Below the pieces are notes generated by a model. The model was not told where the DNA came from. It saw nothing but the letters and a program-made list of their open reading frames with translations, and did no database searches. This document shows positions 379 to 47,700 of a DNA stretch of 64,000 nt, one piece after another. The stretch lies in the IMG/VR virus record IMGVR_UViG_3300019742_000001. One strand, 5' to 3'. The position numbers were made by a program, and so were the translations under genes. This DNA comes from a virus (Duplodnaviria > Caudoviricetes). The stretch's first letter is position 1, and every line of letters begins with the position of its first letter.

Positions 379-612
379 AATATTACCTTTCGTTGGGGGT
401 TAATTTGATATGTTCTTATAATACACAATCTGATCTGAAACGTCAACCAATTACTTACTTCAACATTTCAAGATCTTCCATCCACGAATCATAACACCTT
501 GGGCATAAATTGATTTTTGTTGGTAACTGTAATGACTTATCCCAACCCATAAAATCTACTTTCTTTGGGTCATTTGTTTTATTCTTGCATCCGTAACACC
601 TGACTCGGTTCT

Positions 613-1191
613 TCATACTTTAGATATCTCCACCCGTTCAAACCACCCACGAGCATATCTCTCTTGATTAGGTGATTTCTTCATATAATTTATGTAATGG
701 TTCCCCTGTAAAACATTCAACATCTTCAACAACAATTCAATACTATCATTCTCAAGATATAATTTCAAACATTTTTCTGTTGTCGGACCAAAATCACCAT
801 CTTCAACCATATCAGAGTACAATTTACCATTACGATTCAATATATTAAGTGAGATCTGTAGAAATTTGACTGCCCTACCAACTCCCATATTAACCGATGT
901 GTCAAACATTTCCATTGCCAACCCTAATGACATTGAGTCACCTTCATATGGATCGAAATACTTCTGTTTGTACAACTTTTTAACATCTATTTGAAGTAGT
1001 TCATCATCTTCAAGACATTCTGGAAAGTCAGTATCATCTCTAAGTGCGTCAATTACAAACCAACCACCCCACGATGGATTATACTTTCTGGAAATACCTT
1101 TGTATGTTTCTCCACCCGCATCAAGTGGATCATTACAGTAACCACCTTCATTCTTCATCGTTTTTGCATATGATTCTAAATAACAACTCAT
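613..1191 (-). CDS. glycoside hydrolase family 108 N-acetylmuramidase (endolysin-like) with C-terminal PG-binding domain
   Basis: EGGYCNDPLDAGGETYKGI catalytic motif, FDTSVNMG, DGDFGPTT, C-terminal GWFERV. Confidence 0.9.
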   Translation of the reverse strand: MSCYLESYAKTMKNEGGYCNDPLDAGGETYKGISRKYNPSWGGWFVIDALRDDTDFPECLEDDELLQIDVKKLYKQKYFDPYEGDSMSLGLAMEMFDTSVNMGVGRAVKFLQISLNILNRNGKLYSDMVEDGDFGPTTEKCLKLYLENDSIELLLKMLNVLQGNHYINYMKKSPNQERYARGWFERVEISKV

Positions 1192-1201
1192 CTGAACTCC
1201 T

Positions 1202-1489
1202 TTATTTAACCTTCACATGACACCCACCACATTTCGTTGGAGCCTCATTCTCTGGTAATTTATGACATCCTTTACATTCAGTATGTCCGTATTTCTTATC
1301 AACTTGCACTGGTGAACCATGAATATGACACACGGTACAATCCTCAATCACACTTGAATGTGTTGTATGATTGAATGTCACATCACCTTTACCTGTATAA
1401 TGTTTCGTGAAATCTGTTGATCCTTCCATAGCAAATGCAATACCACCTACCATTAATAACATAACCACTAACAATAAAATCTTCTTCAT
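1202..1489 (-). CDS. ppcA: periplasmic triheme cytochrome c7 (PpcA family) with Sec signal peptide
   Basis: Signal peptide MKKILLLVVMLLMVGGIAFA; three CxxCH motifs (CTVCH, CKGCH, CGGCH); distal His in FNHTTH and GHTE; GDVTF and PTKC segments match the PpcA layout; strong RBS AAGGAG. Confidence 0.88.
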   Translation of the reverse strand: MKKILLLVVMLLMVGGIAFAMEGSTDFTKHYTGKGDVTFNHTTHSSVIEDCTVCHIHGSPVQVDKKYGHTECKGCHKLPENEAPTKCGGCHVKVK

Positions 1490-1583
1490 AAAAAATCTCC
1501 TTTATTTGATTTATAATACACAAGTATTTAACCATAAAAAGGAGATTAATGTAAACGACATCTACCGTCATTTCTATAGATGT

Positions 1584-2312
1584 CTATGTATCTGATTGTT
1601 CTTTCCACAATATATTCATTGATTTATATAACATACCTGATGAATTTGTAGCATTTGGTACCGAAATACCCAAAAAGTTGATATTCTCTGTCAACTTATC
1701 AAAAATTATGTTATGTACATCACCTTTAATTCGCTTCTTCTTTAGTTCTGAATATCCCTGTAACCCAATAACTTTCTTGAAACTACTAGATATGGAATCA
1801 TTAGATACTTTACCAAAGTTCTCCCACTTAGAACCATCTTTCCCATACAATCCAAAGTCACCATCTATTCTAGCAACAAATGCATCTTGTTTATACTTCT
1901 TGGCAATCTGTTGCATCACACCGAAAAATAGATCTGTGGATGGTTGATTCAATATTAACCACGATTCCTCTAATGAATCCTCTATCCTACCACCATACGA
2001 ACTACATTGAGATATATTAATATCATCTGGTAACTCAACTGAACATTCTTTCCAATGACCTACCAATCGATAAGCACCATACCCTTTCCCCAACTTAGAT
2101 CTTACATCTTTTAATAATTGGTTATTTTTAGTTTGGTTTGTCTTTATTGATACTTTCTCACCATTTTCGTACTTTCTGAACGCAGTTATGATACAAAAAT
2201 CAACTGATTCATCTTTAAGTTTAGACATTACTCTACTTAATGATGCACCTGATTCAAGGATACATCTTTCCTCAACCTCCAAATCATCTGTTAAATAGGT
2301 GTCTAGTCTCAT
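1584..2312 (-). CDS. SAM-lyase-like (T3 SAMase/Svi3-3-like) protein, possibly virion-internal
   Basis: IITAFR..N...N..L, GHWKE, LEESW and KYKQDAFV segments parallel T3 SAMase motifs (VSAFR, GCYRE, TEEKT, EWEQDCV) recalled from memory. Confidence 0.5.
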   Translation of the reverse strand: MRLDTYLTDDLEVEERCILESGASLSRVMSKLKDESVDFCIITAFRKYENGEKVSIKTNQTKNNQLLKDVRSKLGKGYGAYRLVGHWKECSVELPDDINISQCSSYGGRIEDSLEESWLILNQPSTDLFFGVMQQIAKKYKQDAFVARIDGDFGLYGKDGSKWENFGKVSNDSISSSFKKVIGLQGYSELKKKRIKGDVHNIIFDKLTENINFLGISVPNATNSSGMLYKSMNILWKEQSDT

Positions 2313-4612: not shown

Positions 4613-4688
4613 TGGAGCCGACAACAGGAATCGAACCTGTAACACCCTCATTACAAGTGAGGTACTCTGCCAATTGAGCTATGTCGGC
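4613..4688 (-). tRNA. trnT: tRNA-Thr(TGT)
   Basis: CCTCA-ctTGTaa-TGAGG, canonical cloverleaf, CCA. Confidence 0.95.
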
Positions 4689-4691
4689 AAA

Positions 4692-4780
4692 TGGAGGAAG
4701 GTAAGGGATTCGAACCCTTAACGGGTATTACACCGCTACTTGTTTTCAAGACAAGCTCCTCGTCCAACCGGACACCTTCC
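4692..4780 (-). tRNA. trnS: tRNA-Ser(TGA)
   Basis: CTTGT-ctTGAaa-ACAAG, long variable arm, CCA. Confidence 0.95.
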
Positions 4781-4839
4781 ATTTTCTCTTTAATACTATA
4801 CAACAAAACCTTAATTTTACTTTATACTATGAAAGAAAG

Positions 4840-4871
4840 TAAGGGTGGGTCTGAGATTACGACCCACCTTT
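4840..4871. terminator. GC-rich hairpin, possible terminator or processing stem
   Basis: AAGGGTGGGTC...GACCCACCTTT inverted repeat. Confidence 0.45.
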
Positions 4872-5147
4872 GTTAGAACTTTCGTTAGATTATCCGTAGG
4901 GGGCAACCCTTTGGTTCCTAACTTATCCACACATCATTCCAATGTGTATTCCAACGTGACTACCTTTTTTAAAGAGTGGTTTTTCTCTTGTCCTGTAAGT
5001 CTATTCAATACTTTGTCTACCCTAGTGAGTAATTAATTCCCTAAGTGCGACTCCCTATCAACACTCTCCAACTTGCGGTCTTTGAGTGCCCCAATTCACA
5101 ATACATGTTGGGGATTAAGCCACTTTCAACTTACAGCGGGGCCAACT

Positions 5148-5228
5148 TTGCGTTTACAATATTGGAATTGAACCAATAAATGTCAGATTAGAATTCTGAT
5201 TGACAACCTTTGTCAGATTGAACTATCC
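5148..5228 (-). pseudogene. degenerate tRNA-Arg(TCT)-like element
   Basis: T arm ATTGG-TTCAATT-CCAAT and TCAGA-atTCTaa-TCTGA present; acceptor stem and CCA poor. Confidence 0.45.
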
Positions 5229-5230
5229 AT

Positions 5231-5697
5231 GATGTGTGACCCCTGTGGATTCATAACCTTGCGATTACAAAATACCACACACCATATATCTTTCCCTTTT
5301 GTATCGGTACTCAATGGTTTTTCAAGATTTTGTCTGCCTCCTCACAAAGACACCCAATACCTATCAAACTACGAACCGCCCTTGACACTACTCTCAGACT
5401 ATGTTCATTATCCCTTATCTTTCATAAATGGAATGTTTGGTATGTAGTATTTCGGTACCACCCGAAACTCGTTTAGACCAGTGTTACCCACCTAAACTTT
5501 TTCCTACACATCCGTCATTACTTATGTCCACCTACTACAGTGAACACCCTTTACGGGAAGATGAGACTTGTTTGGTTATCCATTCGAAAATGGCGGGGAA
5601 GTGATAGAACTTACCCCTTTCGTTACGTTTCCGTAATTTATTTGTTGACACCAAACTGCCAATTTTATATTTTCAAAGATCGTTCTGTTTCAATGTT
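5231..5697 (-). ncRNA. large structured ncRNA, GOLLD/ROOL class candidate
   Basis: ~470 nt without a credible ORF, purine-rich on the minus strand, own promoter, inside a tRNA cluster; 3' part GGTGTGTGGTATTTTGT..CAAGG..ATGAATCCAC..CACATC resembles GOLLD-class 3' domains from memory. Confidence 0.55.
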
Positions 5698-5702
5698 TGT
5701 CT

Positions 5703-5731
5703 ACTATAACAACTTGTTCTGTCTTTGTAAA
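5703..5731 (-). promoter_or_regulatory. sigma70-type promoter TTTACA-17-TATAGT followed by boxA-like GATCTTTGAAAA (5670-5681)
   Basis: Direct reading; 17-bp spacing. Confidence 0.75.
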
Positions 5732-5752
5732 CCACCTTTTTAATTTTAATTT

Positions 5753-5828
5753 TGGTGCGGGTAGTAGGGTTTGAACCTACGACGTACGATTTAAAAGACC
5801 GTTACTCTACCAACTGAGTTATACCCGC
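5753..5828 (-). tRNA. trnK: tRNA-Lys(TTT) copy 1
   Basis: ACGGT-ctTTTaa-ATCGT, CCA. Confidence 0.9.
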
Positions 5829-5839
5829 TCAGTTTTTAA

Positions 5840-5916
5840 TGGTAGGGATGACAGGAATCGAACCTGCATTGTACGAGTTAAAAGCCCGTTGTAAAACCAA
5901 TTTTTACTACATCCCC
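5840..5916 (-). tRNA. trnK: tRNA-Lys(TTT) copy 2
   Basis: ACGGG-ctTTTaa-CTCGT, CCA. Confidence 0.88.
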
Positions 5917-6016
5917 ACAGACACATTTGTTTTACGTGTCCGTGGGAGTGTGTTAATCTCTTATCCCAAGAACACGATGAGTTTATCTTGTTTTCGTTTC
6001 ATCGTTAATCTCCTGT

Positions 6017-6304
6017 TTATTTTTTGTCAATAACTAAATTCATTTCTGTAACATATTTTCTTAAAATAACATAAGTTCCAAACTTATGTGTAATATTATA
6101 CTTTTCACTATCCCTTGTCAAGAACCAACTATAAATTTTATAAAGTTCTCTGTAATCGGTGTTTGTCAACTGTCTAACCGACAAATTACTTTCACGGTTG
6201 AATCTAATCGTCAAAACCCAAATATCTGGCAGTTTAGGTCTTGGTGTCTTTGGAAGTGTACCATTAATCGTAAAAAACTTGTATACCCATTCCTTCATAC
6301 TCAC
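6017..6304 (-). CDS. hypothetical protein
   Basis: ORF with RBS GAAAGG. Confidence 0.55.
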   Translation of the reverse strand: MSMKEWVYKFFTINGTLPKTPRPKLPDIWVLTIRFNRESNLSVRQLTNTDYRELYKIYSWFLTRDSEKYNITHKFGTYVILRKYVTEMNLVIDKK

Positions 6305-6316
6305 ACCTTTCGTTTA

Positions 6317-6541
6317 TTAACACTGGAAATAAATGTCATCAACGATTTCAATATCCGTTAACGATTCCAACTCTTCAATTGCTGATGTCTGTGTAAGACT
6401 CTTTAAGTGTATTTGTGGATAACACCATCCAGTTTTTACATTCTGGAAAGATTTGGTCACATCCTTTAACATAAAATAGTAACCTTCATTGTCAATACTC
6501 TTTAATAATATACCTTTTCCAAGTAGTGTTTCATTATCCAT
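6317..6541 (-). CDS. hypothetical protein
   Basis: ORF with RBS AAGGA. Confidence 0.55.
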   Translation of the reverse strand: MDNETLLGKGILLKSIDNEGYYFMLKDVTKSFQNVKTGWCYPQIHLKSLTQTSAIEELESLTDIEIVDDIYFQC

Positions 6542-6683
6542 ACAAATTCCTTTATTGGATGCCGATCTCTCCCCAACTTCAAAATCCTAAGTGGTATCGA
6601 CTACGCTCCCACTAACTTAGACCTTCTACGTGGAAGAATCCCTCTTTTCGTTCTCCACACCTCAGCGTGAAGTTTTACGACTC

Positions 6684-6839
6684 TTACCTACCTTGACCAC
6701 GATATCGTTTGACACCACGTTTCTTATTCCGTTTTTTCTTTTCTGGTCGTGAACATTTACCACCGCCAATCGTGGTCACCATCTTTCTACCATTAATCGA
6801 TTTGTCGTTTGCTGTTGTTCCTCTGATTTTCTTAGCCAT
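6684..6839 (-). CDS. small basic protein ending KRYRGQGR (51 aa; absent from ORF track)
   Basis: MAKKIRGTTANDKSINGRKMVTTIGGGKCSRPEKKKRNKKRGVKRYRGQGR; RBS GAAGGA; promoter TTTACA-17-TATTAT at 6873-6901. Confidence 0.75.
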   Translation of the reverse strand: MAKKIRGTTANDKSINGRKMVTTIGGGKCSRPEKKKRNKKRGVKRYRGQGR

Positions 6840-6916
6840 TTCGTTTCCTTCTGTTAGTGGTTAATTTCAATAATAATAACACTCTGTTTCAATAATGTAA
6901 ACTATCTTTTTAAAAA

Positions 6917-6994
6917 TGGTAGGAGTAGAGGGATTCGAACCCATCACTTTATGCCGTTTAAAGACACTGACTCTGCCAATTGGTCTATACTCCC
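6917..6994 (-). tRNA. trnL: tRNA-Leu(TAA), short variable arm
   Basis: GTGTC-ttTAAac-GGCAT, A73, CCA. Confidence 0.8.
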
Positions 6995-7050
6995 ATATAA
7001 ACTTAGTTGTTGATAGTGGTCGTTACCCCACTAATTCTTCCGATTTCCAC

Positions 7051-7130
7051 GGTTACTCGCTGTGTATTGGAACAGGTTACACCTGCACTTCCCCGTTTAT
7101 AGGGTGTCTCCTAATTACCTATTACGAACC
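7051..7130 (-). pseudogene. degenerate tRNA-like element
   Basis: CCC-tataaac-GGG and GCAGG-tgtaa-CCTGT arms, no CCA. Confidence 0.3.
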
Positions 7131-7206
7131 AATGATTTCAGGTAATACAGTCTCTTTAAAGTCCATGTTCGATTACAGACTACATGACTTACATGTTTAT
7201 CAACAA

Positions 7207-7395
7207 CTATTTCTTTTCTTCTACTGTATCACTTAAATCATGGATTGTCCCACAATTATCACAATAAATATTTACTGATGGATCAAAGACAACTTCTTCA
7301 TCTGACATATCATGACCTTCTGGATCGATTGAGTATGTAAATGAATCATTACACCCACAGTTTCCACATATAACATGTAATCTCGCCCTTACCAT
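7207..7395 (-). CDS. small Cys-rich Zn-ribbon-like hypothetical protein
   Basis: CGNCGC...CDNCG; RBS GGAG. Confidence 0.6.
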   Translation of the reverse strand: MVRARLHVICGNCGCNDSFTYSIDPEGHDMSDEEVVFDPSVNIYCDNCGTIHDLSDTVEEKK

Positions 7396-7413
7396 ATCAA
7401 TCTCCGTCTAAAT

Positions 7414-7491
7414 TGGTGTTCCTAGTGGGATTCGAACCCGACAATAATCGCTTATAAGGCAACCGTTATAGACCATTTTAACTACAGGAAC
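7414..7491 (-). tRNA. trnI: tRNA-Ile(TAT)
   Basis: GTTGC-ctTATaa-GCGAT, A73, CCA. Confidence 0.82.
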
Positions 7492-7498
7492 GTGTAAC

Positions 7499-7574
7499 TG
7501 GTGGATCTCCACGGACTTGAACCGTGATAATACGTCTTATGAGGACGCTGCTCTACCAATTGAGCTAAAGATCC
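7499..7574 (-). tRNA. tRNA(CAT), elongator Met or Ile2
   Basis: GCGTC-ctCATaa-GACGT, canonical cloverleaf, CCA. Confidence 0.9.
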
Positions 7575-7578
7575 AAAA

Positions 7579-7655
7579 TGGTGTCCCCGATAGGATTCGA
7601 ACCTATGACTAATAGCTTAGAAGGCTACTGCTCTATTCCGCTGAGCTACGGAGAC
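7579..7655 (-). tRNA. trnR: tRNA-Arg(TCT)
   Basis: GTAGC-ctTCTaa-GCTAT, CCA. Confidence 0.95.
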
Positions 7656-7663
7656 ATGTAACT

Positions 7664-7768
7664 TGTAATATCACTTTAACGAATGCTTCACCATATTTGC
7701 CCCACCGACAGTCAAGCCGAGGAGGGAATCGAACCCTCTTTCTTTCGTCTTGCAAAAGTGATATTACA
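7664..7768 (-). ncRNA. YrlA-like Y RNA (permuted tRNA mimic)
   Basis: 14-bp terminal helix; GACGAAAG fits GNCGAAN(0-1)G; order is T arm, closed acceptor-like stem, then D-like loop. Confidence 0.7.
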
Positions 7769-7774
7769 TAAATT

Positions 7775-7851
7775 TGGTCAGGAGTATCGGGTACGATCCG
7801 ATATACACAGAGTCACAATCTATGCGATTAACCATTTATCTTAACTCCTGA
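7775..7851 (-). tRNA. trnH: tRNA-His(GTG), U-1:A73 type
   Basis: ATAGA-ttGTGac-TCTGT; T loop ATCGTAC; CCA. Confidence 0.85.
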
Positions 7852-7859
7852 TGATTTGT

Positions 7860-7948
7860 AATACTCAGTGAGGGAATTGAACCCTCATCTCTCCGTCGAG
7901 GTAGTGATCTAATCCGTCTAGGGATATCCGTTTGATCTAACTGAGTAT
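7860..7948 (-). ncRNA. tRNA-like RNA with expanded D loop
   Basis: ACTCAGT/ACTGAGT acceptor, T arm TGAGGG-TTCAATT-CCCTCA, no clear anticodon, no CCA. Confidence 0.5.
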
Positions 7949-7955
7949 AATTTTT

Positions 7956-8029
7956 TGGTACTCCTAGATGGAATCGAACCACCGTTGTCTGGATGTAAGC
8001 CAGTCGTACTACCATTGTACTATAGGAGT
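7956..8029 (-). tRNA. trnV: tRNA-Val(TAC)
   Basis: CTGG-ctTACat-CCAG, CCA. Confidence 0.92.
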
Positions 8030-8204
8030 ATGTTGTAACGTCGCCAATTTACCGTCTGGAAGTCTCTGAGTGGTTTATACTATACTATAGACATCTACCG
8101 AGGAATATAGTATTCGTGTGTTCCACATTACCTACCGCTAAATAGGTTTTCCTTCTCTACAGATTCATTATCCGATTGACACGAATAAATCAGCTATTAT
8201 CTTA

Positions 8205-8282
8205 TGGTAGCCCGTGAGGGTGTTGAACCCTCCCTTTACACCGTTTGAAGATGCTCCCTCTGCCAACGTGGGGTAACGAGCC
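8205..8282 (-). tRNA. trnL: tRNA-Leu(CAA), short variable arm
   Basis: GCATC-ttCAAac-GGTGT, CCA. Confidence 0.8.
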
Positions 8283-8344
8283 ATAACTTTCTGTCTCAAT
8301 GTTTTTACATAGTAACCTATCATATAAACATTGTCAACTAATTA

Positions 8345-8409
8345 CTTACTGAGGTTGGAGTCAAACCAACATTTGTCTAAAAGGTCTTGCTCAATCGCAT
8401 CCTACAGTA
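8345..8409 (-). pseudogene. degenerate tRNA-like element
   Basis: GTTGG-TTTGACT-CCAAC T arm, TACTG/CAGTA ends. Confidence 0.3.
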
Positions 8410-8412
8410 AAA

Positions 8413-8552
8413 AGGAGGGTAGGATGAGTATCGACCTCATCTTCCTTGGTCCCCACTCTCAACGGTACCGTCTCCAAGTGGTTTCTTTTGTTTACACGGT
8501 TCACATCTAAGGTTTCTGTGGTACCACTTTCACCGTTGATGTCCGACTACCC
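8413..8552 (-). ncRNA. ~140-nt tRNA-like ncRNA
   Basis: GGGTAG/CTACCC terminal stem, GATGAG-GTCGATA-CTCATC T-like arm, internal TCAACGGT/ACCGTTGA helix. Confidence 0.55.
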
Positions 8553-8560
8553 ATAATATT

Positions 8561-8636
8561 TGGTGGAAGAAAAGGGAATCGAACCCTAAAGACCCTCTGT
8601 ATGCAAAACAGAGTCGCAACCCCAATGCCTTCTCCC
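8561..8636 (-). tRNA. trnA: tRNA-Ala(TGC)
   Basis: ttTGCat loop, G3:U70, CCA. Confidence 0.92.
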
Positions 8637-8673
8637 ATGATTTTTCATACATAATCGATTTAATTCCGATTAT

Positions 8674-9231
8674 CTATGTAATTTTTAACTTCTTTCGTAT
8701 CATAGTCTCAGATACACCAATTATCTCAGCAATTCTTGAGTTAGTCAAAGTTTTTTTCATTTCAACTAAGTCAAACTTTGACCAATCAACTTTACCTCTA
8801 AGTGATCCAGCACATTTCTTTGAACATGTTGTATATGTTTTTGGTTTTTCTTTACCACAAACAGGACAATACGTTACTTCTGTTTGTATGTAAATCACAA
8901 AATCTTCATCAAAAGTATTATGTGTCTCTGGTAATTCTGTTATACCACTATGAACTTCTTTGTGACAATTTGAACATAAAAGAATACATTTCCTTAGTTC
9001 TTTAACTATATTGTCCCACGATTTTGGATTAGCCATTACATTACCAAATGACAATTCCTTTTCTTCTGGATCAATGTGATGTAATTCTAATGCGTTGTTA
9101 CACTTATCATAACTACATATTTGACAACAACCACCCATTGATTCAACTATTCGTGATTTTGTAGAACTTCTCCACTTTTTTACTGCGTCTGATTGTTTAC
9201 TCACAACAAACCTCCAATTTGATATTAACAA
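8674..9231 (-). CDS. HNH homing endonuclease
   Basis: CQIC..C...LELHHIDP..K...KCILLCSNCHKEVH; TATAAATA late promoter at 9245-9252. Confidence 0.85.
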   Translation of the reverse strand: MLISNWRFVVSKQSDAVKKWRSSTKSRIVESMGGCCQICSYDKCNNALELHHIDPEEKELSFGNVMANPKSWDNIVKELRKCILLCSNCHKEVHSGITELPETHNTFDEDFVIYIQTEVTYCPVCGKEKPKTYTTCSKKCAGSLRGKVDWSKFDLVEMKKTLTNSRIAEIIGVSETMIRKKLKIT

Positions 9232-9268
9232 TACCTGTTAATAGTATTTATAAAAGTTTGTATTAATT

Positions 9269-9343
9269 TGGCTCCGAAGGTAGGGATCGAACCTACGACC
9301 TTGAAGTTAACAGCTTCCTGCTCTACCGCTGAGCTACTTCGGA
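9269..9343 (-). tRNA. trnN: tRNA-Asn(GTT)
   Basis: ctGTTaa loop, canonical cloverleaf, CCA. Confidence 0.95.
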
Positions 9344-9351
9344 ATAAATAA

Positions 9352-9425
9352 TGGTGCCTCTTGGTGGAATCGAACCACCATCAAACGATTATCAGCCGTC
9401 TGCGCTACCGTTGTGCTAAAGAGGC
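9352..9425 (-). tRNA. trnI: tRNA-Ile(GAT)
   Basis: GACGG-ctGATaa-TCGTT, CCA. Confidence 0.93.
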
Positions 9426-9504
9426 ATATAACTAAAAAATGGTTGGTCCGACGAAGACCATAAAGAACCAGAGGAGTCACCTCAACCTGTTCAACCATTA
9501 AACT

Positions 9505-9583
9505 TGGAGCGGATATGGTGAATCGAACACCTTGCGATGGGTTGGAAACCCACTGTCACACCATGTAACTGAGCGATACCCGC
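9505..9583 (-). tRNA. trnG: tRNA-Gly(TCC)
   Basis: GTGGG-ttTCCaa-CCCAT, GCGGGTA acceptor, U73, CCA. Confidence 0.85.
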
Positions 9584-9596
9584 ATTTCTTACTAAA

Positions 9597-9674
9597 TGGT
9601 AGCCCGTGAGGGTGTTGAACCCTCCCTTTACAGTTTCTAAAACTGCTCCCTCTGCCAACGTGGGGTAACGAGCC
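9597..9674 (-). tRNA. trnL: tRNA-Leu(TAG), short variable arm
   Basis: GCAGT-ttTAGaa-ACTGT; body identical to the Leu(CAA) gene. Confidence 0.82.
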
Positions 9675-9705
9675 ATAAAATTAAACTTGATCTGACTACC
9701 CCAGA

Positions 9706-9847
9706 TTGTAACCCCAGAACTTGTGATCCTTGGTTATCAAGTTTTATGATTGTACAAGGAATGACTAATTTCCTCTGGACGTTTCCAATATATTCGGTTC
9801 GAACCAAGTATATCGTATAGACGTGTCTTAAATCGCCTTAGATAGTC
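9706..9847 (-). ncRNA. putative structured ncRNA between tRNAs
   Basis: GACTATCT...GGGGTAGTC terminal pairing, several internal hairpins. Confidence 0.35.
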
Positions 9848-9867
9848 ATACAATCATTTCGTAAATT

Positions 9868-9943
9868 TGGTGGAACCACAAGGTAACGATCCTTGACCTT
9901 CTGGACTTCAATCAGACGTGCAGACCATCTACACCATAGTTCC
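9868..9943 (-). tRNA. trnF: tRNA-Phe(GAA)
   Basis: ttGAAgt loop, T loop ATCGTTA, CCA. Confidence 0.85.
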
Positions 9944-9949
9944 GTAATT

Positions 9950-9986
9950 TGGCAGGGATAGTAGGGATCGAACCCACATCCAAACC
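9950..9986 (-). pseudogene. 3' half remnant of a tRNA-Trp-type gene
   Basis: T arm GTGGG-TTCGATC-CCTAC plus TATCCCT-G-CCA only; abuts the HNH stop codon. Confidence 0.7.
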
Positions 9987-10396
9987 TATTTATTTTTTTC
10001 CATGTAGTGTATTTCTGAGTGACAATTCTTACACAAAACAACACACTTGTCAATTTCAATTATTATCTTTTCCTTGTTCATACCATCCGCCACCATTTTA
10101 CTAACACCCTTTACCTTTTTAGTAGGATCTAAATGATGAAAGTCTAAACAATAGTATCTATCTTCCCCACAATTAGAACATTTCAGGGTTTTCTTGTAAT
10201 CAGCAAACCATAAAGATAACTTTTTTTGTGATCTCCTACTACTTTCAACATACTTCTCTTTATTATCTTCGTAGTGTTTCTTAGTTGATATTGCTTGACA
10301 TACCTTACAATAATACTGATACCCATCATTCTTCGACTTATTCTTGTTGAACTCAGACAAAGATTTTTCTTGTTTACACCTACTACACACCTTCAT
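9986..10396 (-). CDS. HNH homing endonuclease with N-terminal Zn ribbon
   Basis: CSRCKQEK..CKVC; CSNCGEDRYYCLDFHHLDP...KCVVLCKNCHSEIH; TATAAATA at 10415-10422. Confidence 0.85.
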   Translation of the reverse strand: MKVCSRCKQEKSLSEFNKNKSKNDGYQYYCKVCQAISTKKHYEDNKEKYVESSRRSQKKLSLWFADYKKTLKCSNCGEDRYYCLDFHHLDPTKKVKGVSKMVADGMNKEKIIIEIDKCVVLCKNCHSEIHYMEKNK

Positions 10397-10459
10397 AATA
10401 ATCTCCTATGAAAGTATTTATAAAAGTTTCCAAACTATCAACTGTTGTTTGGAGTTAAT

Positions 10460-10533
10460 TGGCAGGGATACAACGAATCGAACGCTGATTAGAGGTGTTG
10501 GAAGCCCCTGTATTACCATTATACGATATCCCT
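10460..10533 (-). tRNA. trnW: tRNA-Trp(CCA)
   Basis: A1:U72, G73, GGGGC-ttCCAac-ACCTC register, CCA. Confidence 0.8.
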
Positions 10534-10702
10534 ATAAAAAATCTGTTATTGCATATTATATTAGCTCTTTCCTTTCACATTGCAGGTGAATTAAGTGATA
10601 AGTGTACTCCACACTAATAAAGGTTTATGCTATACATCTATAACAGAAATTACTGATCTCTCTGGTGGGATTTAAACCCACATTAGTTTCAGAGAGATAA
10701 TT

Positions 10703-10778
10703 TGGTAGTGCTGGGGGGAATTGAACCCACCGTGATCAGATTGAAAATCTGAGATCCTAACCATTAGATGACAGCACC
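10703..10778 (-). tRNA. trnE: tRNA-Glu(TTC)
   Basis: TCAGA-ttTTCaa-TCTGA, CCA. Confidence 0.9.
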
Positions 10779-10898
10779 ATATTCTTTGTAAATTAAATTT
10801 TAAACGGTTACTTTACCGAGAGGATATTCCAATGTAAAGTCTTCCCATATCAACTTTACGAGGAAGGGGGGAACTCAAGATGTTTCACCGTTCAAACT

Positions 10899-10974
10899 TG
10901 GCGCCTCATACGGTATTCGAAACCGCAACAACTTGATCGACAATCAAGCTCCATTCCCAGATGGACCATAAGGC
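10899..10974 (-). tRNA. trnD: tRNA-Asp(GTC)
   Basis: CTTGA-ttGTCga-TCAAG, G73, CCA. Confidence 0.88.
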
Positions 10975-11309
10975 ATTTTCTTTAATTTAGTGGAACAAGG
11001 AGTGTATGCCCTGATTTACTATCCACGTCCTGTGTGGATATCCACTAAAAGGTTTGGTAACCGCACCGTATCCCTTAGACTTGTCGAGGTAGTCGCCGTG
11101 ATTGGTTACCCGTAAATTCTGGTTAATCGGGATTCCATTTCCATCAGCGACCAAGCCAATTTACTACGGTATCCTTTTCACCACGGTCACATAACAATCA
11201 ACTGGTTAGGAATATGCCTCTGTGACCTAAACTTGTCACGGTTTTCGCCTCTCAGGACGGGTCTACATCAAATTAATGATCACCGTGAACCCTCTTTCTT
11301 TCGTATTAA

Positions 11310-11383
11310 TGGTCGGAAAGGTTGGAATCGAACCAACGTTACCTTCGTCCAAGGAAGGGTGAGTACCATTCTCTTACTCTCCG
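11310..11383 (-). tRNA. trnP: tRNA-Pro(TGG)
   Basis: CCTTC-ctTGGac-GAAGG, C1:G72, CCA. Confidence 0.9.
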
Positions 11384-11440
11384 TAATTCTTAAAACATCT
11401 TATCAGGAGTGTTCTCAACTGTCAAGATGTTTATAAATTT

Positions 11441-11523
11441 TGGTGGGAGGCGGAAGATTCGAACTTCTCCCCGAAGGAATGGTTTTACAGACCACTTGCT
11501 AGAGCCACTAGCTTTCACCTCCC
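11441..11523 (-). tRNA. trnY: tRNA-Tyr(GTA)
   Basis: GTGGT-ctGTAaa-ACCAT, long variable arm, CCA. Confidence 0.92.
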
Positions 11524-11597
11524 ATATTTTTTACTTTTTCAAAAAACATTCAATTGTCAAAGATCAGTGTTTCCGTTGTTTCGTTTAACGTGAGATC

Positions 11598-11626
11598 ATC
11601 TTACCAAATCTCTTTCCTATCGTCAA
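11598..11626 (-). promoter_or_regulatory. sigma70-type promoter TTGACG-17-TAAGAT followed by boxA-like GATCTTTGACAA (11554-11565)
   Basis: Direct reading. Confidence 0.75.
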
Positions 11627-11829
11627 CCACTTTCTTTTAGTTTCAATAATTCTTCTTCAACCAATTTGGGATTTACTAGACCACGTGTTTTCTGCATCAC
11701 ACCCTTAAAAACTGTGTTATAAGGAACTTCATTCATTCCAGTTGTGTCTTCATCAAATATTTCATTGATTGCTTTGTATATCTCAAACATATAGGTAATT
11801 CTACTTCCTGTCAACTGTTTTCTTATCAT
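11623..11829 (-). CDS. small protein with GatB/YqeY tail-like C-terminus
   Basis: FKGVMQKTRGLVNPKLVEEELLK resembles the GatB C-terminal G.VMK.T.G.ANP..V. Confidence 0.5.
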   Translation of the reverse strand: MIRKQLTGSRITYMFEIYKAINEIFDEDTTGMNEVPYNTVFKGVMQKTRGLVNPKLVEEELLKLKESG

Positions 11830-11842
11830 ACAAATCCTTTAA

Positions 11843-11914
11843 TGGAGGGTATGGAGGGAATTGAACCCTCGTTCATCGTTTTGCAGACGATACACCGAAC
11901 CATCGAACATACCC
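11843..11914 (-). tRNA. trnC: tRNA-Cys(GCA)
   Basis: ATCGT-ctGCAaa-ACGAT, U73, CCA. Confidence 0.9.
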
Positions 11915-11915
11915 A

Positions 11916-12152
11916 TTAAATTTGAAATAAACTATTGTCTAATATTTCTTGTGTTTCTGGTAATTCTTTTCCTACTGAACCAGTATATCGGTCTTTTAAT
12001 ACCTGACCCGTTGTTATATTCTTAATATAAACAGCATCATACATTTTTCTAACTGGAATCGTTCTACTTGGGTTTGTATCAATGGTCTGATGAATATACT
12101 CAATCTTACCATCACCATAAATATACTTGTATACAAAAAATGAATTTTTCAT
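11916..12152 (-). CDS. hypothetical protein, C-terminal LFxI tag
   Basis: ORF ends DNSLFQI. Confidence 0.6.
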   Translation of the reverse strand: MKNSFFVYKYIYGDGKIEYIHQTIDTNPSRTIPVRKMYDAVYIKNITTGQVLKDRYTGSVGKELPETQEILDNSLFQI

Positions 12153-12433
12153 ATCTCAAATAAACCATCATCTTCTTTGAAGTGGTCATCAGTATACCCT
12201 GTAACTATAAATCCTGTCTCTAACAATCTTTCTATTGTCGGAACATCTAATCTATCAATTTGTATTGGATTTCCAGTATCCATCATTTCACTAATATAAT
12301 CAAGTGACGATCTTAAACCAAAACCTGTACTATTACGAAATGCTTTGATCAAATGAATCTTACCATTACCATTACCAGTTCTGGCTCTGGCTTTAAGTTG
12401 TTTACCAATATGCACATAATATGATTTTTTCAT
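12149..12433 (-). CDS. protein with ribosomal L7/L12 CTD-like motif, C-terminal LFxI tag
   Basis: KIHLIKAFRNSTGFGLRSSLDYI vs the L12 KIxVIKxVRxxTGLGLKEAKDLV pattern. Confidence 0.55.
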   Translation of the reverse strand: MKKSYYVHIGKQLKARARTGNGNGKIHLIKAFRNSTGFGLRSSLDYISEMMDTGNPIQIDRLDVPTIERLLETGFIVTGYTDDHFKEDDGLFEI

Positions 12434-12449
12434 AATGTTACCTTTAAAT

Positions 12450-12523
12450 TGGCGGGGGATGAAGGTATCGATCCTTCGACGCTAGATTCAAAATCTAGTA
12501 TGATTCCATTTCACCAATCCCCT
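12450..12523 (-). tRNA. trnQ: tRNA-Gln(TTG)
   Basis: CTAGA-ttTTGaa-TCTAG, G73, T loop ATCGATA, CCA. Confidence 0.88.
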
Positions 12524-12526
12524 ATA

Positions 12527-12835
12527 TTATGGGAAAAACTTATCCCAATCTGTTTTGTTTAAATACATCGTTCTTGATTTCAAGATCATATCAAGTGAAG
12601 GATAGGTTGTCAATATTTCTTTTACATTATCTTCACCTACAACAGCACTGAATCCTGTTGGGTACAATTCATCAATTATTTGAGGGTTTCCATTAGGTTC
12701 TGTTACAACTTCCACAACAAGAATCCCTTTGTCCCACCATCCTTGACAAGTATCACAAGGTTCATAGTCAAAAAATTCTGGTTTGTCATCCACAATATCA
12801 TCTTTTGACTTTCTACACCAAAAACATATTTTCAT
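12527..12835 (-). CDS. Cys-rich hypothetical protein (start reassigned to MKICFWC)
   Basis: CFWC...PCDTC; RBS GGAG; the longer ORF overlaps tRNA-Arg. Confidence 0.65.
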   Translation of the reverse strand: MKICFWCRKSKDDIVDDKPEFFDYEPCDTCQGWWDKGILVVEVVTEPNGNPQIIDELYPTGFSAVVGEDNVKEILTTYPSLDMILKSRTMYLNKTDWDKFFP

Positions 12836-12857
12836 ATTAAATCTCCGTATTATATAT

Positions 12858-12930
12858 TGGCACCCTATGGAGGAGTCGAACCTCCGTAAGCTGGTTTCGT
12901 AAACCGACCACCGTTTCCCACGGATAGGGT
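12858..12930 (-). tRNA. trnR: tRNA-Arg(ACG)
   Basis: ttACGaa loop, T arm GGAGG-TTCGACT-CCTCC, CCA; atypical D arm. Confidence 0.75.
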
Positions 12931-21926: not shown

Positions 21927-24149
21927 CTATACAGTTACAAACAAATCATTATCTTTTAGGTCTACCAGAATGGTTTGACCTTCTTCAACAGAACCTTTCA
22001 ACAACATTGTACCAATCTCTGTTTCCAAACGACCTGTTAAGTATCGTTTCAGAGGTCTAGCACCATATACAGGGTCATATGATACCGTTGCGACGTGTTC
22101 TGCAGCTTCATCTGTGATTTCCAGACCAATGTTCCGTTCTGCCAACCGTTTCTTAATGTCATTGAGACAAAGTTTAACGATTTCAGTTGTTTCATTACGA
22201 GTTAAAGGTTTAAAGGTAACAATATCATCAACACGATTCAAGAATTCTGGACGGAATCCCTTTTGTAGTTCTGACATCACCTTATCTTTTGCCGCATCTG
22301 TTACTTGACCATCTTGACCGATACCACTTAACAGGTATTGACTACCAATGTTAGAAGTCATAATGATTACAGTATTCTTGAAACTAACTGTCCGACCGTG
22401 ACCATCTGTGACACGACCATCATCAAGAATTTGAAGGAAAGTATTGAACACATCAGGGTGTGCCTTTTCAATCTCATCAAATAGGATAACTGAAAATGGT
22501 TTACGACGAACTGCCTCTGTTAACTGACCACCATCTTCATAACCAACATAACCGGGAGGTGCTCCTATCAGTCTGGAAACACTATGTTTTTCCCCATATT
22601 CTGACATATCAATACGGATAATGTTGTTCTCGTCATCAAACATTGACTCAGCAAGTGCTTTAGCCAACTCAGTTTTACCGACACCAGTTGGTCCCAAGAA
22701 AATGAATGATCCGATTGGACGGTTTGGATCTTTGATACCAGACCGACTACGAATAACTGCCTGTGATACCAGTGTGACCGCCTCTTCTTGACCAATCAAT
22801 CGTTTGTGAATCTCATCACCAATTTTAAGAATCTTTTCTGACTCACCTTCGGTTAAACGAGTCACTGGAATACCTGTCCAACGACTAACTACTGCAGCGA
22901 TCTCATCTTCATCAATAGCATCGTGTAACATACTACCACCATTGAATTCTAATAGAGTTTTTTCGTGGATATCAAGTTCTGTCTCCATTTTTGGAATGAT
23001 ACCGTATTTCAACTCTCCAGCACGTTCCAATACATTTTTTCGTTCACAAACTTCCAACTCATTCTTGGCGTTTTCAAGTAGTTCACGAAGATTTGCAACA
23101 CCTTTGATTGCGTTCTTTTCGGTGTTCCATTGAGTCATCAGGTCATCACATTCAACACGAAGTTCTACCAACTCACTTGTAATAACATCAACACGGATCT
23201 GTGAATTCTGATCAACCTCTTTTTTCAAAGCAGATTCTTCAATTTCAAGTTGTTGAATTCGTCGTGTAATTGAATCCAATGATGCTGGTAAACTATCAAG
23301 TTCTGTACGAACCATTGAACACGCCTCATCAACCAAATCAATCGCTTTGTCTGGTAAGAATCGGTCAGCAATATAACGATGTGATAACTTTGCCGCAGAT
23401 ACTAATGCTGAATCACGAACAGTAATTCCGTGATAAACCTCGTATGTTTCTTTCAAACCACGAAGAATTGAAATCGTATCCTCTACAGTTGGTTGTTCTA
23501 CCAAAATTGATTGGAAACGACGCTCTAATGCAGAATCTTTCTCAATGTTCTCACGATACTCATCAAGGGTGGTAGCACCAATACAACGAAGAACACCACG
23601 AGCTAATAATGGTTTTAGTTGATTTCCAACATCTACACCATTACTTGCACCCATACCAACCATATTATGGATCTCATCAATAAATAACATGATTTGACCA
23701 TCTTTTGATTGAACATAGTCAAGAATGAACTTCACTCGTTCCTCAAGTTCTCCCTGCATTTTGGTTCCTGCCATCAATGCACCAAGGTCAATTGAATAGA
23801 TAACCTTTTCTTTAAGTGAATCAGGAACGTCACCAGAGACGATTCGTTGTGATAAACCTTCAACAACCGCAGTTTTACCTACTCCCGGTTCTCCAATCAG
23901 AACAGGGTTATTCTTAGTTTTACGACATAAAATTTGAACCATACGTCGAATCTCAGAGTCACGACCAACTACAGGATCAAGTTCTCCTTGTCGTGCTTCT
24001 TCAACAAGATCACGACCATATTTTAATAAATCGTCATTAATCAAACGATCATCAATTTCTTCTTCTTCAACCTGTGGAGTATAATCAGGTCGTTCAACTC
24101 TCATACGAATCGCATCATCGATTGGTGGGGTTGTGTTCCATGCAGTCAT
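21927..24149 (-). CDS. clpB: ClpB AAA+ disaggregase lacking the N-terminal domain
   Basis: [28 protein letters not shown]-domain coiled coil, [29 protein letters not shown]. Confidence 0.93.
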
Positions 24150-42062: not shown

Positions 42063-42554
42063 CTATTTCTTCTTTTTCTTCTTTTTCTCTGTTGACATAA
42101 TGGTATAATCAATCGCCTTGGTTGACAATGACAACGTTTCGTCTTCAACAAGATATGTTCTGTTATTGAAACAACTATCCTTGATATCACTATGTCTTTT
42201 CTGTCTATTGATGTAATTCACAAAAGAATGATTACAGATTGTTGTTATGTACGCAAACGGATTCCTTGACTTTTCCAAATCAAAGTTTTTGAGGTATTTA
42301 CAACAAGTCAATACCGCCTCTTGAATCATATCCTCTTTCCATGTATAATTTATAAAATTTCCTTTATTAGATAGATTCTTTGCTATCAACAACAACATTC
42401 TCCCTAATTCCTCAGACATCAACCCATCATTTAACCTCATGGTTTCTATCTCTGGAATAAGATCTTTGTTCCTAACGTAATATACAGGTGATTCGGGATC
42501 GACACCTTTTATTATCTCAATTACTGTCGTATCACCCGTTTTCTGTTCTACCAT
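42063..42554 (-). CDS. gp55: gp55-like late transcription sigma factor
   Basis: YYVRNKDL, NFINYTWKEDMIQEA, KYLKNFD...NPFAYIT.I..SF. Confidence 0.88.
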   Translation of the reverse strand: MVEQKTGDTTVIEIIKGVDPESPVYYVRNKDLIPEIETMRLNDGLMSEELGRMLLLIAKNLSNKGNFINYTWKEDMIQEAVLTCCKYLKNFDLEKSRNPFAYITTICNHSFVNYINRQKRHSDIKDSCFNNRTYLVEDETLSLSTKAIDYTIMSTEKKKKKKK

Positions 42555-44740: not shown

Positions 44741-47700
44741 TTACCATGTCCTATAGATTGCAATATATGTAAAGTCAACTTTGTGACTAACACCAGCAGG
44801 TGATGGTGTTATAATACCTGTTTCGTCATCCAACATAAATTCATTGTCACCAACAAACTCTGTTACTAATGTTGCTGGTTGTTCTGAGGATAATGTCACA
44901 CCACTACCAGTTGATGGTGTCAATGTAAACGAAGACTCTAATTCAAATGTTTTATTGTAGTCATCAAATCTAAGTATCTTTCTATTTTCACCCAAGTATC
45001 TCAAATACTTACCTTTATAATAATCATAAGTTATAGCAAGTTGATCTGAATCTATTTTAAGTGTTATGCCACCATCAGTTGTTGTTATTGTTTCGTCAAC
45101 AGTGAATGTTAAAATATCATCAAAATAAATATAACTGTCTGTTGTATTGTTCTTGTAATACAATTTATACAATTCTGGGTATCCATCATCAACAGAGTGA
45201 AATTTGATATCAGCAGTTTCACTTACTTCATGTGTTGATGCTGGTGTAAATACATCATTGTGTTTCTCTGCTCTTGTCCAATACATTAAATGACTAAACC
45301 CTGTTACATATTGTTGGTTGTCATTTGCAATAGAATCTTGATTAATATAACAAGTATAATAATCATCCGTTGATAGTGTATTTGATGGACTTGTAGTCAA
45401 TTCATTAAATCTAACCTGTACATCAGCAGAAAATGGATGAAGACTATCAAATGTACTATGTGTTGGTTTACCTGTAATCAAAGTTTCTACTATTTCATAC
45501 CCCTCACTATCACGTAATCTATAATCCATATCAACTTTAACATTATCCGATCCAATAACATAATTTGGTACCAGTTTCCATGATGACAACTCTGTATCCC
45601 ACGTGTAATTGAATTTCGAAAGTCTAATAAAGTGGTCAGACAAAAATTCACGTGACCCGTAACTAATAGCACCTATCCATTGTTTATTCCACGGAGTTAC
45701 ACAAGTAATCCATTCAGGTTTCTGTGCAATAGATGAATACATGAATTCAGGGGTGTTGTGAGATGTGTCAACCACCTCTCCTGACACTGGACATATACTG
45801 AAATATGATGTTAATGGTTGTCCACCAGAAAGACGTTTATACACATTACTCCTTCTATCATAGGAATAATCCGTTGTGTAAGAAGCTGGCCAACTGTTAC
45901 TATATAACACAACCCCACCAAGAGCATCACCTGATAGGTCAAGATCATCAAACTTAATATATGCTTGATTATAATCGTGGTCAAGTATAGTTGACTTATA
46001 TGTATCTCCTTTTGGTAAAAACCACTCATTTCTTTTCAACTCTAATGTGGTTGCATCATATACACGACACATATACTTATACAATACAAATATCTCATTC
46101 TTGTCTGTATAACATGCCATACCATCTTTTGATGTAGAGAATGGATCTTCAAACTGACCAATCTCAGGTTCAAATGAATCATCAGATTCTATCATTTTAG
46201 GTAAAGCCAACACTTTCCTATCAATTGTGCCAGAATTTATGGTATATTTCAACAAATCTGTTGTAAACGATTGGTATACCTCACCGCTATTAGTATATAT
46301 GGCAACTAATGCATTACCTGTTATAACATTACTTGAAATCCCTGAATTAACTTCAACCCATGATGACCAAGTAATACCATTAAACATAGAATAATATGTT
46401 TGTATTTCATCTAACACATTTCTCACCACTTTTAACTTACCGTGAGGTTTTGTGATATCAATATCAGTAACATTTACCAGTGTTGTATCAAATGAATTTA
46501 TTGTGTCATATGTTTCATTAATATCAATATCAAAGCCTCTCACATTAAAATCATACACAGAAATGTCTTCGTTTATACTATTATAATCAAAATCTGAACT
46601 GAATAAAATATTGTCTATTAGATATTTTCCCGATGCGTCTGAATAACTATTAGTGTCAAGACCAAACCTTATTGTTATGTTTTGGGTTCCAACAGGAATT
46701 GGTATCCCATCTGTAGTTTTCCATCCATAATCAATATACACCGAAGGTCTGAAATCAAACATCGATGTCCCATCAACATACACAGTAAGATTGGATGCAT
46801 AATTATTGCCATTAACAATATACAGGTAATAATCTAACGTTAAAACTAATGGTTCTGTTTGAACTGGAATATCAAGTGAGATATATCCAAAATTATCATG
46901 AATATATTGAGTGTAGTCGAATACACCAAACCGAATTACGTTTGTGCGACCACCTCCATCAGTCAAATATTTCCACGTAGAACCGTTCGTTACCGCACCA
47001 TCACTGTGATACATTGAAATTGTTGTTCCTGACATAAGACCAGAATCTAATGTCCATGTGGCTTGGTCTGGTGTTGATGGATTAACATATGACCCATCAA
47101 CTATTGGATCACCAGTTAAAACATCCACATCAAATGATTCTCCACCAGTAGATCCGATAGTTGATGTTTCCGTTGATGATGTGGTAAATCCTATATATCT
47201 TCCGGGTAACATACCATCTAATGTCGTAGATTCATCATACATATCAGATGTATCCATTACAGATAATCCAACAATATGACCATATAAGAACGGTTTGATG
47301 TTGTCCAATTCTATCTCAACATCAAACTCACCTGACTCCATCACAAACCCACATAATGAAGTTGTTTGTGTCGATTCACCACCAGATTTAACCGTGGAAC
47401 TACTATAAATGGGTGACTTTAGAGTTAGGGTGTTTAGTGTATCATCTTTTGTATATGATCCACCAACACCACCATTCTTGAGATAAGACCAACATGTATA
47501 AGATGAATACAGGTCAACATCACCTGTAACTCCATCCACGACAACATTATTAACATCAGTTAAACCATCTATTGACATTATTTGAGCACAATCAGTTGAA
47601 ACCAATATGATACTATCCGTTGGTCTGTGATAACTACCCCATGTAACTAAATTGGTGTTATTATTCACACCAAGTTGTTTACCAAAATCGGTAATCCACC

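Follow-up and report, generated by a model that had tools for sequence, protein, structure and literature searches.

A c7-type triheme cytochrome gene beside the endolysin gene in a clade of jumbo phages: a candidate auxiliary respiratory gene

Cytochromes of the c7 type carry electrons across the periplasm of metal- and sulfur-respiring bacteria and hold a central place in these respirations and in extracellular electron transfer; the closest described examples are the c7 of Desulfuromonas acetoxidans (c551.5; PDB 1ehj, 1hh5 and 1new) and PpcA to PpcE of Geobacter sulfurreducens (1os6, 3bxu, 3h33, 3h4n and 3h34). Here, we describe a gene for a putatively secreted c7-type triheme cytochrome on a stretch of 64,000 nucleotides of viral DNA (Caudoviricetes; IMG/VR record IMGVR_UViG_3300019742_000001), hereafter called the window. 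The gene, at positions 1202 to 1489 of the minus strand, is phage-borne; its product has the sequence, the ligand set and the predicted fold of a c7; it is conserved across a clade of related phages and adjoins an endolysin gene.

The D. acetoxidans c7 combines, like the phage protein, three CxxCH motifs with three distal histidines, and the two are 44–46% identical in structural alignment with a template modeling (TM) score of 0.72–0.73 by target length. They differ in mature length (68 residues in D. acetoxidans, about 75 in the phage), in a few loop residues, and in that the former is encoded by a bacterium and the latter by a phage. PpcA–E resemble the phage protein in its predicted fold, ligand pattern and predicted periplasmic location, whereas the phage copy scores below the equivalog level of their family and falls in a clade of phage sequences and metagenomic sequences of no assigned origin. 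Electron carriers of other kinds are also found in viruses: T4-like cyanophages encode the plastocyanin petE and the ferredoxin petF, which are thought to sustain the energy-conserving electron flow of the host. These are small soluble carriers like the c7, but they serve photosynthetic chains, hold copper or iron–sulfur and have no need for periplasmic heme attachment.

Multiheme cytochromes have been described on mobile elements in two settings. Jumbo phages with amoC carry a NapC/NirT multiheme cytochrome, interpreted as a host-like metabolic gene (2026 preprint); this is likewise a multiheme c-type cytochrome of large phages, but of the membrane-anchored quinol dehydrogenase type, with ammonia-oxidizing hosts and with high similarity to the host homologs, whereas the c7 of the window is old, diverged and clade-wide. 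The jumbo extrachromosomal elements of Methanoperedens carry multiheme cytochromes proposed to extend extracellular electron transfer of the host (PMC13444090). They share with the c7 phages the mobility and the extra multiheme cytochromes, but they are archaeal and extrachromosomal rather than lytic tailed phages, and their proteins are large compared with a c7 of 75 residues. A study of phage 5-aminolevulinate synthase reports, moreover, that the phages concerned occur where bacteria with multiheme-cytochrome extracellular electron transfer are common. In relation to these cases, the window gene belongs to a phenomenon already known but adds a new kind of auxiliary gene to it: tblastn against 50,697 GenBank phage records (INPHARED release) gave no match, PHROGs holds no family for the cytochrome, a fold search of BFVD returned nothing below E 1.6, and literature searches for c7 or PpcA in phages or viruses, phage-encoded cytochromes and viral c-type cytochromes in extracellular electron transfer found nothing relevant. 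An earlier reading of the sequence (the original prediction), according to which such cytochromes are not known as an established class of phage gene, is borne out in this respect.

Identity of the protein and its conservation in related phages

The features of the gene, all on the minus strand, are as follows.

1202–1489, minus strand: gene for the cytochrome c7-type triheme precursor, 95 amino acids from ATG to stop, about 75 in the mature protein
1430–1489, minus strand: Sec-type signal peptide, residues 1–20 (MKK, 17 hydrophobic residues, predicted cleavage between AFA and M)
1358–1369, minus strand: HxxH within FNHTTH (H41 and H44), predicted distal axial ligands, aligned to FDHKAH of solved c7
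1325–1339, minus strand: heme-binding motif 1, CTVCH (C51, C54, H55), invariant in the alignment of relatives
1283–1285, minus strand: H69 in YGH, predicted third distal axial histidine, aligned to the histidine of DKKSAH in 1ehj
1262–1276, minus strand: heme-binding motif 2, CKGCH (C72, C75, H76), invariant in the alignment of relatives
1217–1231, minus strand: heme-binding motif 3, CGGCH (C87, C90, H91), invariant in the alignment of relatives

The Sec signal, the three CxxCH motifs, the three further histidines and the strong ribosome-binding site that the original prediction had read from the letters are all present. The predicted signal peptide has alanine at positions −3 and −1, forms a separate N-terminal helix of lower pLDDT (predicted local distance difference test) in an AlphaFold2 (AF2) model, and has an equivalent in 20 of the 20 nearest relatives. 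The profile search suggested at the outset placed the protein above the gathering cut-off of Pfam PF02085 (Cytochrom_CIII; 25.7 bits against 22.9), and the gene is the only open reading frame (ORF) of at least 40 amino acids in the window having more than one CxxCH; because of these two observations, the motif set cannot be taken for a chance pattern.

Comparison with all PDB chains by phmmer ranked the D. acetoxidans c7 first (1ehj, E 2.4e-11), followed by Geobacter PpcB, PpcE, PpcD, PpcA and PpcC (E about 4e-10 to 2e-5). In the phmmer alignments, VTFNHTTH pairs with VTFDHKAH and DKKYGH with DKKSAH, the three CxxCH motifs coincide, and the heme-ligand histidines of the phage protein are aligned to the matching histidines of 1ehj and 3bxu. 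The AF2 model, built on 20 relatives, reached a mean pLDDT of 84; its first 19 Foldseek matches in the PDB were all c7 (probability 1.00, TM 0.62–0.73 by target length, 33–46% identity), the best of them being PpcB 3bxu (E 1.3e-5, TM 0.72 by target length, 41% identity), and against PpcA–E it gave TM scores of 0.65–0.72 by target length. Among the 20 nearest relatives, at a mean column identity of 38%, all 12 heme ligands (H41, H44, C51, C54, H55, H69, C72, C75, H76, C87, C90 and H91) are invariant, and besides them only M1, G35 and F39; judging from this alignment, the heme sites are under purifying selection.

The mature protein of about 75 residues has exactly three CxxCH motifs and is without the heme II motif of tetraheme c3, and the related proteins likewise carry three such motifs. 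A tetraheme cytochrome c3 was rejected on the motif number and on the structures of that family, which gave TM scores of at most 0.43 by target length and root-mean-square deviations above 5 Å. Sequence and model thus identify the protein, with very little doubt, as a c7-type triheme cytochrome, for which the conserved H41, H44 and H69 predict bis-His ligation of all three hemes. The NCBIfam model NF043011 (cytochrome c7) matched it end to end (positions 1–88 of 89, E 3e-17, 62.9 bits), and two relatives, L109:2406–2705 and L109:2702–2965, scored 58.5 and 44.3 bits. The earlier designation as PpcA/c7-type therefore holds for c7, by Pfam, PDB and fold, and only loosely for PpcA, in view of the 120 bits set for an equivalog and of the separate clade; a strict PpcA ortholog was rejected on that cut-off.

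Relatives were reached only by an exhaustive HMMER search and by alignment-based scans; a word-indexed protein search with the cytochrome recovered only the protein itself, and a single-sequence scan of IMG/VR gave no match. The HMMER search, over 1.84 billion representative proteins, returned 257 matches at E ≤1e-3; the five best of these (46–60% identity) and P0013 are without exception encoded by phage contigs that show synteny with the window. The alignment-based scan of IMG/VR added five more viral contigs with the cytochrome, 12–236 kb in length, which have 10–17 neighboring genes in common with the window phage at 42–84% identity. The shared gene order comprises ThyX, small ORFs, the cytochrome, the GH108 endolysin, an S-adenosylmethionine (SAM) lyase-like gene, the gene 30.3 family, HD, HNH and gp32. 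At least 10 diverged phage lineages hold the gene in the same place, directly upstream of the GH108 endolysin and with all heme ligands intact, a spread beyond what the original prediction knew when it called for a survey of related phages. Across the syntenic phages the endolysin is 63–69% identical, ThyX 65–84% and the cytochrome 42–59%, so that the cytochrome, by these comparisons, evolves faster than its neighbors yet retains every ligand.

Scanning IMG/VR with the endolysin revealed a triheme ORF directly upstream in 5 of 5 contigs with an endolysin of 64% identity or more, and within 3 kb in none of 27 contigs with an endolysin of 38–59% identity, those checked being not syntenic. This contrast suggests that the cytochrome marks one phage lineage, with a guanine plus cytosine (GC) content of 27–41%, and the comparisons as a whole indicate that the gene is old and clade-wide in jumbo phages. 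As is expected of an auxiliary gene, it lies inside a viral genome, and the homolog of a cellular gene is kept intact in related viruses. Outside the syntenic family, two contigs carry members of the c7 clade, one being L100, where numerous small ORFs share one orientation and 1.2 kb separate the c7 gene from an Amidase_2 endolysin-type gene, and the other the contig of P0019, on which an HNH gene is present.

Next to the c7, four relatives have another cytochrome gene. In L009 and L013 its product is a class I monoheme cytochrome (Cytochrome_CBB3, 31.1 bits), which likewise bears a signal peptide; in L014 it is a second c7-like protein of 130 amino acids (L014:5064–5456), encoded between the c7 and the endolysin; and in L016/L017 (= L109/L110) a second triheme gene, of 87 residues, stands in tandem with the first. 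The L014 protein has two CxxCH motifs and, replacing the third, an odd C-x8-CH (CSGGMGGGSCH), which may be an extended heme-binding motif. The monoheme genes L009:9674–9991 and L013:4376–4693 are 98% identical, the adjoining c7 genes 53%, and the two phage-like contigs come from one sample and are otherwise non-syntenic; by these identities, it looks as if a partial cytochrome cassette was recently exchanged between co-occurring phages.

Viral setting and organization of the locus

The cytochrome was claimed to be phage-encoded among viral genes, directly upstream of a co-oriented GH108 endolysin, and Pfam, PHROG matches, tRNA genes and synteny all uphold this. The window has a GC content of 33–40% throughout (35% overall) and 24 tRNA genes, and it encodes virion structural and head proteins, a UvsX-like recombinase, SbcC/SbcD, ThyX, a phage metallopeptidase, a sigma-70 region 2 protein and a ClpB-like ATPase lacking the N domain. 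An identical protein was found on 10 contigs (ENA, JGI and Logan assemblies; five places and five samples among those listed). One of these contigs is 239 kb long with the cytochrome gene about 150 kb in, and its far side holds T4 gene-30.3 family, HD, NAD-ligase, HNH and gp32 genes, giving viral genes on both flanks for tens of kilobases. All four runs holding the locus are microbial mat metagenomes, and independent Logan contigs of these runs (8.6 kb, 55 kb twice and 1.7 kb) extend across the cytochrome into the flank on either side with 0 differences; three of the four runs may be those from which the window itself was obtained. The assembly chimerism that the original prediction had named as its possible undoing is excluded by the viral surroundings and by these bridging assemblies from four runs.

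The elements around the cytochrome gene are listed below.

613–1191, minus strand: GH108 / PG_binding_3 endolysin (Pfam 77.4 and 44.8 bits; phrog_315 endolysin)
455–616, minus strand: cysteine-rich, zinc-ribbon-like ORF of 53 amino acids, overlapping the endolysin stop (ATGA)
1497–1502, minus strand: Shine–Dalgarno sequence AAGGAG, 7 nt before the ATG, kept at 9 of 10 related loci
1526–1566, minus strand: promoter-like element (upstream motif, −35, spacer, −10), conserved in related phages
1556–1566, minus strand: upstream motif GGTAGATGTCG, part of the promoter-like element
1550–1555, minus strand: −35 TTTACA, followed by an 18-nt spacer
1526–1531, minus strand: TG-extended −10 TTAAAT, part of the promoter-like element

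On the same strand, 10 nt separate the cytochrome stop codon from the start of the endolysin, and a scan for terminator-like sites gave none between these genes. In most syntenic members the spacers between the cytochrome gene or genes and the endolysin measure 1–40 nt; in L019 the distance is about 200 nt. The small cysteine-rich ORF is probably the last gene of the cytochrome–endolysin unit; L011 and L015 carry a homolog of it behind the endolysin, and L006 has an ORF of equal length at this position. The SAM-lyase-like gene lies upstream of the cytochrome–endolysin pair in the window and downstream of it in L009, L014, L019 and L185, the pair itself staying intact. The window gene in question (1584–2312, minus strand) has only sub-threshold Pfam matches, to DUF3293 and DUF2674, and is related (27% identity) to the gene downstream of the L019 endolysin; in L009, L014 and L185 the gene downstream of the endolysin matches Pfam S-AdoMet_lyase.

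Alignment of the upstream regions from 10 related phages revealed that the 110 nt preceding the first cytochrome gene are conserved in 8–9 of the 10 relatives, with coding regions about 50% identical. The conserved order consists of ATGTNGG/GATGTCGGGT repeats, TTTACA/TTGACA/GTTACA, about 17–18 nt, GTGTTAAATA, about 20 nt and AAGGAG. In the rest of the window, the upstream motif and the GTGTTAAATA block both recur no more often than expected by chance, and by this count the promoter-like element is specific to the cytochrome locus and no general promoter of the phage. Its layout suggests a sigma-70-type promoter with a TG-extended −10 and a predicted transcription start near 1519, so that the gene would be read by the host polymerase. 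The ATGTNGG/GATGTCGGGT repeats upstream of the −35 also occur in L006, L009, L011, L013–L016 and L019, and the motif could be an operator for a regulator. A T4-type late promoter, TATAAAT at 1509–1515, was considered and dropped, this motif being not enriched in the window (34 found against 31.8 expected).

Further genes of the window were recorded alongside. Small ORFs and HNH-like genes are scattered through the array of 24 tRNA genes (4613–12930, minus strand); among these tRNAs are two tRNA-Lys(UUU) and one tRNA-Ile whose anticodon is UAU. At 21927–24149 (minus strand) lies the ClpB-like double AAA+ ATPase without a Clp_N domain, which is 67–83% identical in related phage contigs and 62–66% identical to full-length bacterial ClpB; such a phage disaggregase is unusual. 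The ORF at 42063–42554 (minus strand; 163 amino acids, sigma-70 region 2 domain, 31.1 bits) is probably a phage sigma factor and lies, in the direction of transcription, just downstream of a block of very large unannotated genes. Two ORFs have lengths of 1503 and 1499 amino acids (44741–49252 and 50405–54904, minus strand), the first of them with no PHROG match, and further large ORFs of 1044 and 1005 amino acids likewise gave none; these large ORFs may be paralogous structural or injected proteins.

Phylogeny and probable host

The trees comprised 77–78 c7 sequences over 98 columns and were of low resolution, and the sampling of cellular c7 was biased by its starting point, a 9-sequence alignment with the single pattern APTKCx[GE]CH. 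All context-verified phage copies fell in one clade of 23–24 rows, whose remaining rows are unannotated metagenomic representatives and which holds no named cellular sequence, while the c7 of Geobacteraceae and Desulfuromonadaceae formed a separate clade. An approximately unbiased (AU) test rejected a tree in which the 10 context-verified phage copies are held together alone (p 0.004); because the unannotated metagenomic sequences interleave with the phage copies, this rejection is uninformative on cellular sequences, and the interleaved sequences are themselves most probably phage. In the tree comparison proposed in the original prediction, the protein thus does not group with the c7 of Geobacteraceae and Desulfuromonadaceae, the phage clade standing apart.

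The nearest named cellular c7 belong to metagenome-assembled genomes of Geobacteraceae and Desulfuromonadaceae (38–42% identity by BLAST, 45–48% by HMMER), with others nearby in Trichloromonadaceae and Desulfuromonas sp., and an Atlas search showed the c7 family to be dominated by Thermodesulfobacteriota. For the ClpB-like protein, the best named cellular matches (64–66%) are from Deltaproteobacteria, Desulfuromonadales, Desulfuromonas soudanensis and Geoalkalibacter. The many tRNAs of the window whose anticodons read A-ending codons fit an AT-rich phage in a GC-richer host. The nearest relatives of the c7 and of the ClpB-like protein together constitute a moderate host clue, not proof; what had been called a strong clue still points to Desulfuromonadales, but not strongly at identities of 38–48% and 64–66% and with no direct phage–host link found. 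On these similarities we lean, at slightly better than even odds, toward a member of the Desulfuromonadales as the host.

Proposed role and alternative explanations

Our preferred interpretation, to which we assign a probability of roughly 0.6 on the sequence evidence, is that the jumbo-phage clade keeps this secreted c7-family triheme cytochrome as an auxiliary respiratory gene. The course of events that we infer, from the timing of expression through export and heme attachment to the electron partners and the benefit to the phage, would be the following. The cytochrome and the endolysin would be co-transcribed from their own conserved sigma-70-like promoter, with a strong ribosome-binding site driving translation of the cytochrome; the precursor would be exported by Sec and cleaved after AFA, and the cytochrome c maturation system of the host would attach three hemes at the CxxCH motifs, with H41, H44 and H69 as the sixth ligands in an all bis-His arrangement. 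The mature protein of about 75 residues would then supplement or substitute the periplasmic c7 pool of the host, which would pass electrons from quinol oxidoreductases of the inner membrane to reductases in the periplasm or the outer membrane, for Fe(III), Mn(IV), S0 or electrodes. Respiration, proton-motive force and ATP supply would thereby be sustained during replication of a genome of about 239 kb, as the original prediction had thought possible for metal-reducing respiration, and early lysis from a collapse of the proton-motive force may also be averted.

Several observations weigh against this interpretation or against parts of it. The protein stays well below the equivalog cut-off of NF043011 (62.9 against 120 bits), so that its partners and redox potentials may differ from those of PpcA. 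Neither a ccm nor a heme-synthesis gene was found in the 64-kb window, which is part of the 239-kb genome, and maturation would accordingly depend on the host; none of the runs holding the locus is an RNA run; and co-transcription with an endolysin is unexpected for a purely energetic gene. The support for the phage clade is modest (SH-aLRT, a likelihood-ratio branch test, of 88 in the quick tree and 24/76 in the careful tree), as is to be expected of 98 columns. On the side of the host, the margin of the ClpB matches is small (64–66% against 62–64% for Acidobacteriota and Lachnospiraceae). When 20 kb of the phage were compared with 401 genomes of the Desulfuromonas class, the matches fell mainly in the conserved ClpB-like gene, and none of those listed was spacer- or prophage-like, in a DNA search that may miss spacer-sized matches. 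Finally, the GC content of the phage (35%; clade 27–41%) is lower than the 50–54% of the Desulfuromonadales contigs with the nearest c7, and a phage–host gap this large is within the range of T4-like phages.

The surroundings of the gene can also be read in another way, in which the cytochrome would be a sensor of redox state or proton-motive force, or an antiholin-like regulator, tying holin triggering to the respiratory state with no metabolic boost. Throughout the syntenic family, one or more cytochrome genes directly adjoin the co-oriented endolysin, the pair is intact while the SAM-lyase-like neighbor switches sides, one promoter-like element is common to both genes, and the c7 gene of the unrelated-looking L100 also lies near an endolysin-type gene. 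However, the whole region is syntenic, so that adjacency may reflect common descent, the monoheme and c7 pair of L013 does not adjoin a GH108 gene, and Pfam and PHROGs recognized no holin, antiholin or spanin beside the gene. We know of no cytochrome-based lysis regulator, and the strict retention of 12 ligands and of the c7 fold fits an electron carrier, with which a sensor would still be compatible; a regulator of this kind is in our view unlikely. It need not compete with the respiratory role, as the two can merge, since a sustained proton-motive force itself prevents premature holin firing. In a bolder version of this idea, which we hold to be rather unlikely, the cytochrome and the endolysin would form a self-promoted "respire-then-lyse" module, the moment of lysis being tied to the redox state of the periplasm. 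That the phage c7, with the second cytochrome in some relatives, would in such a module uphold the proton-motive force when acceptors are insoluble or scarce seems just as tentative. If true, this module would be the first redox-gated lysis clock.

Alternatively, rather than supporting the normal chain, the protein might store electrons in the periplasm as a capacitor or draw them off as a decoy, which could buffer redox stress, detoxify metals, starve competing host processes or tie up the heme and maturation capacity of the host. The phage c7 form a clade of their own and score too low for a PpcA equivalog, and may thus have other partners; the mature phage proteins vary in net charge from −3 to +8 with no consistent pattern, which suggests no fixed docking surface; and the class I monoheme cytochrome of some relatives hints at a different circuit. 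The unchanged ligand set of a conserved carrier is most simply read as serving the same pathway as the cellular homologs, which makes diversion distinctly unlikely. An origin from cellular DNA, by misassembly or misbinning of a bacterial gene, or as a decaying passenger without function, is highly improbable: the identical locus occurs on 10 contigs, Logan contigs 8.6 kb and 55 kb in length run through it with no difference, viral genes flank it on both sides, and at least 10 lineages have the gene in place with intact ligands.

The auxiliary respiratory role, if correct, bears on a step of wide reach, as c7-linked respiration drives the iron, manganese and sulfur cycles of sediments and mats, besides powering bioelectrochemical systems, and we found no description of phage control of the c7 step. 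The role is directly testable, the protein being small and easily expressed with standard ccm helper plasmids, and the natural c7 variants of these phages are useful for studying how redox tuning evolves. The gene may serve as a marker for phages of electroactive bacteria. That the c7 has stayed intact through long divergence, sometimes with a second cytochrome, implies that the phages gain from operating one part of the anaerobic respiratory chain of the host, and the concept of the auxiliary gene would thereby extend from photosynthesis and the enzymes of nitrogen and sulfur metabolism to multiheme electron shuttles.

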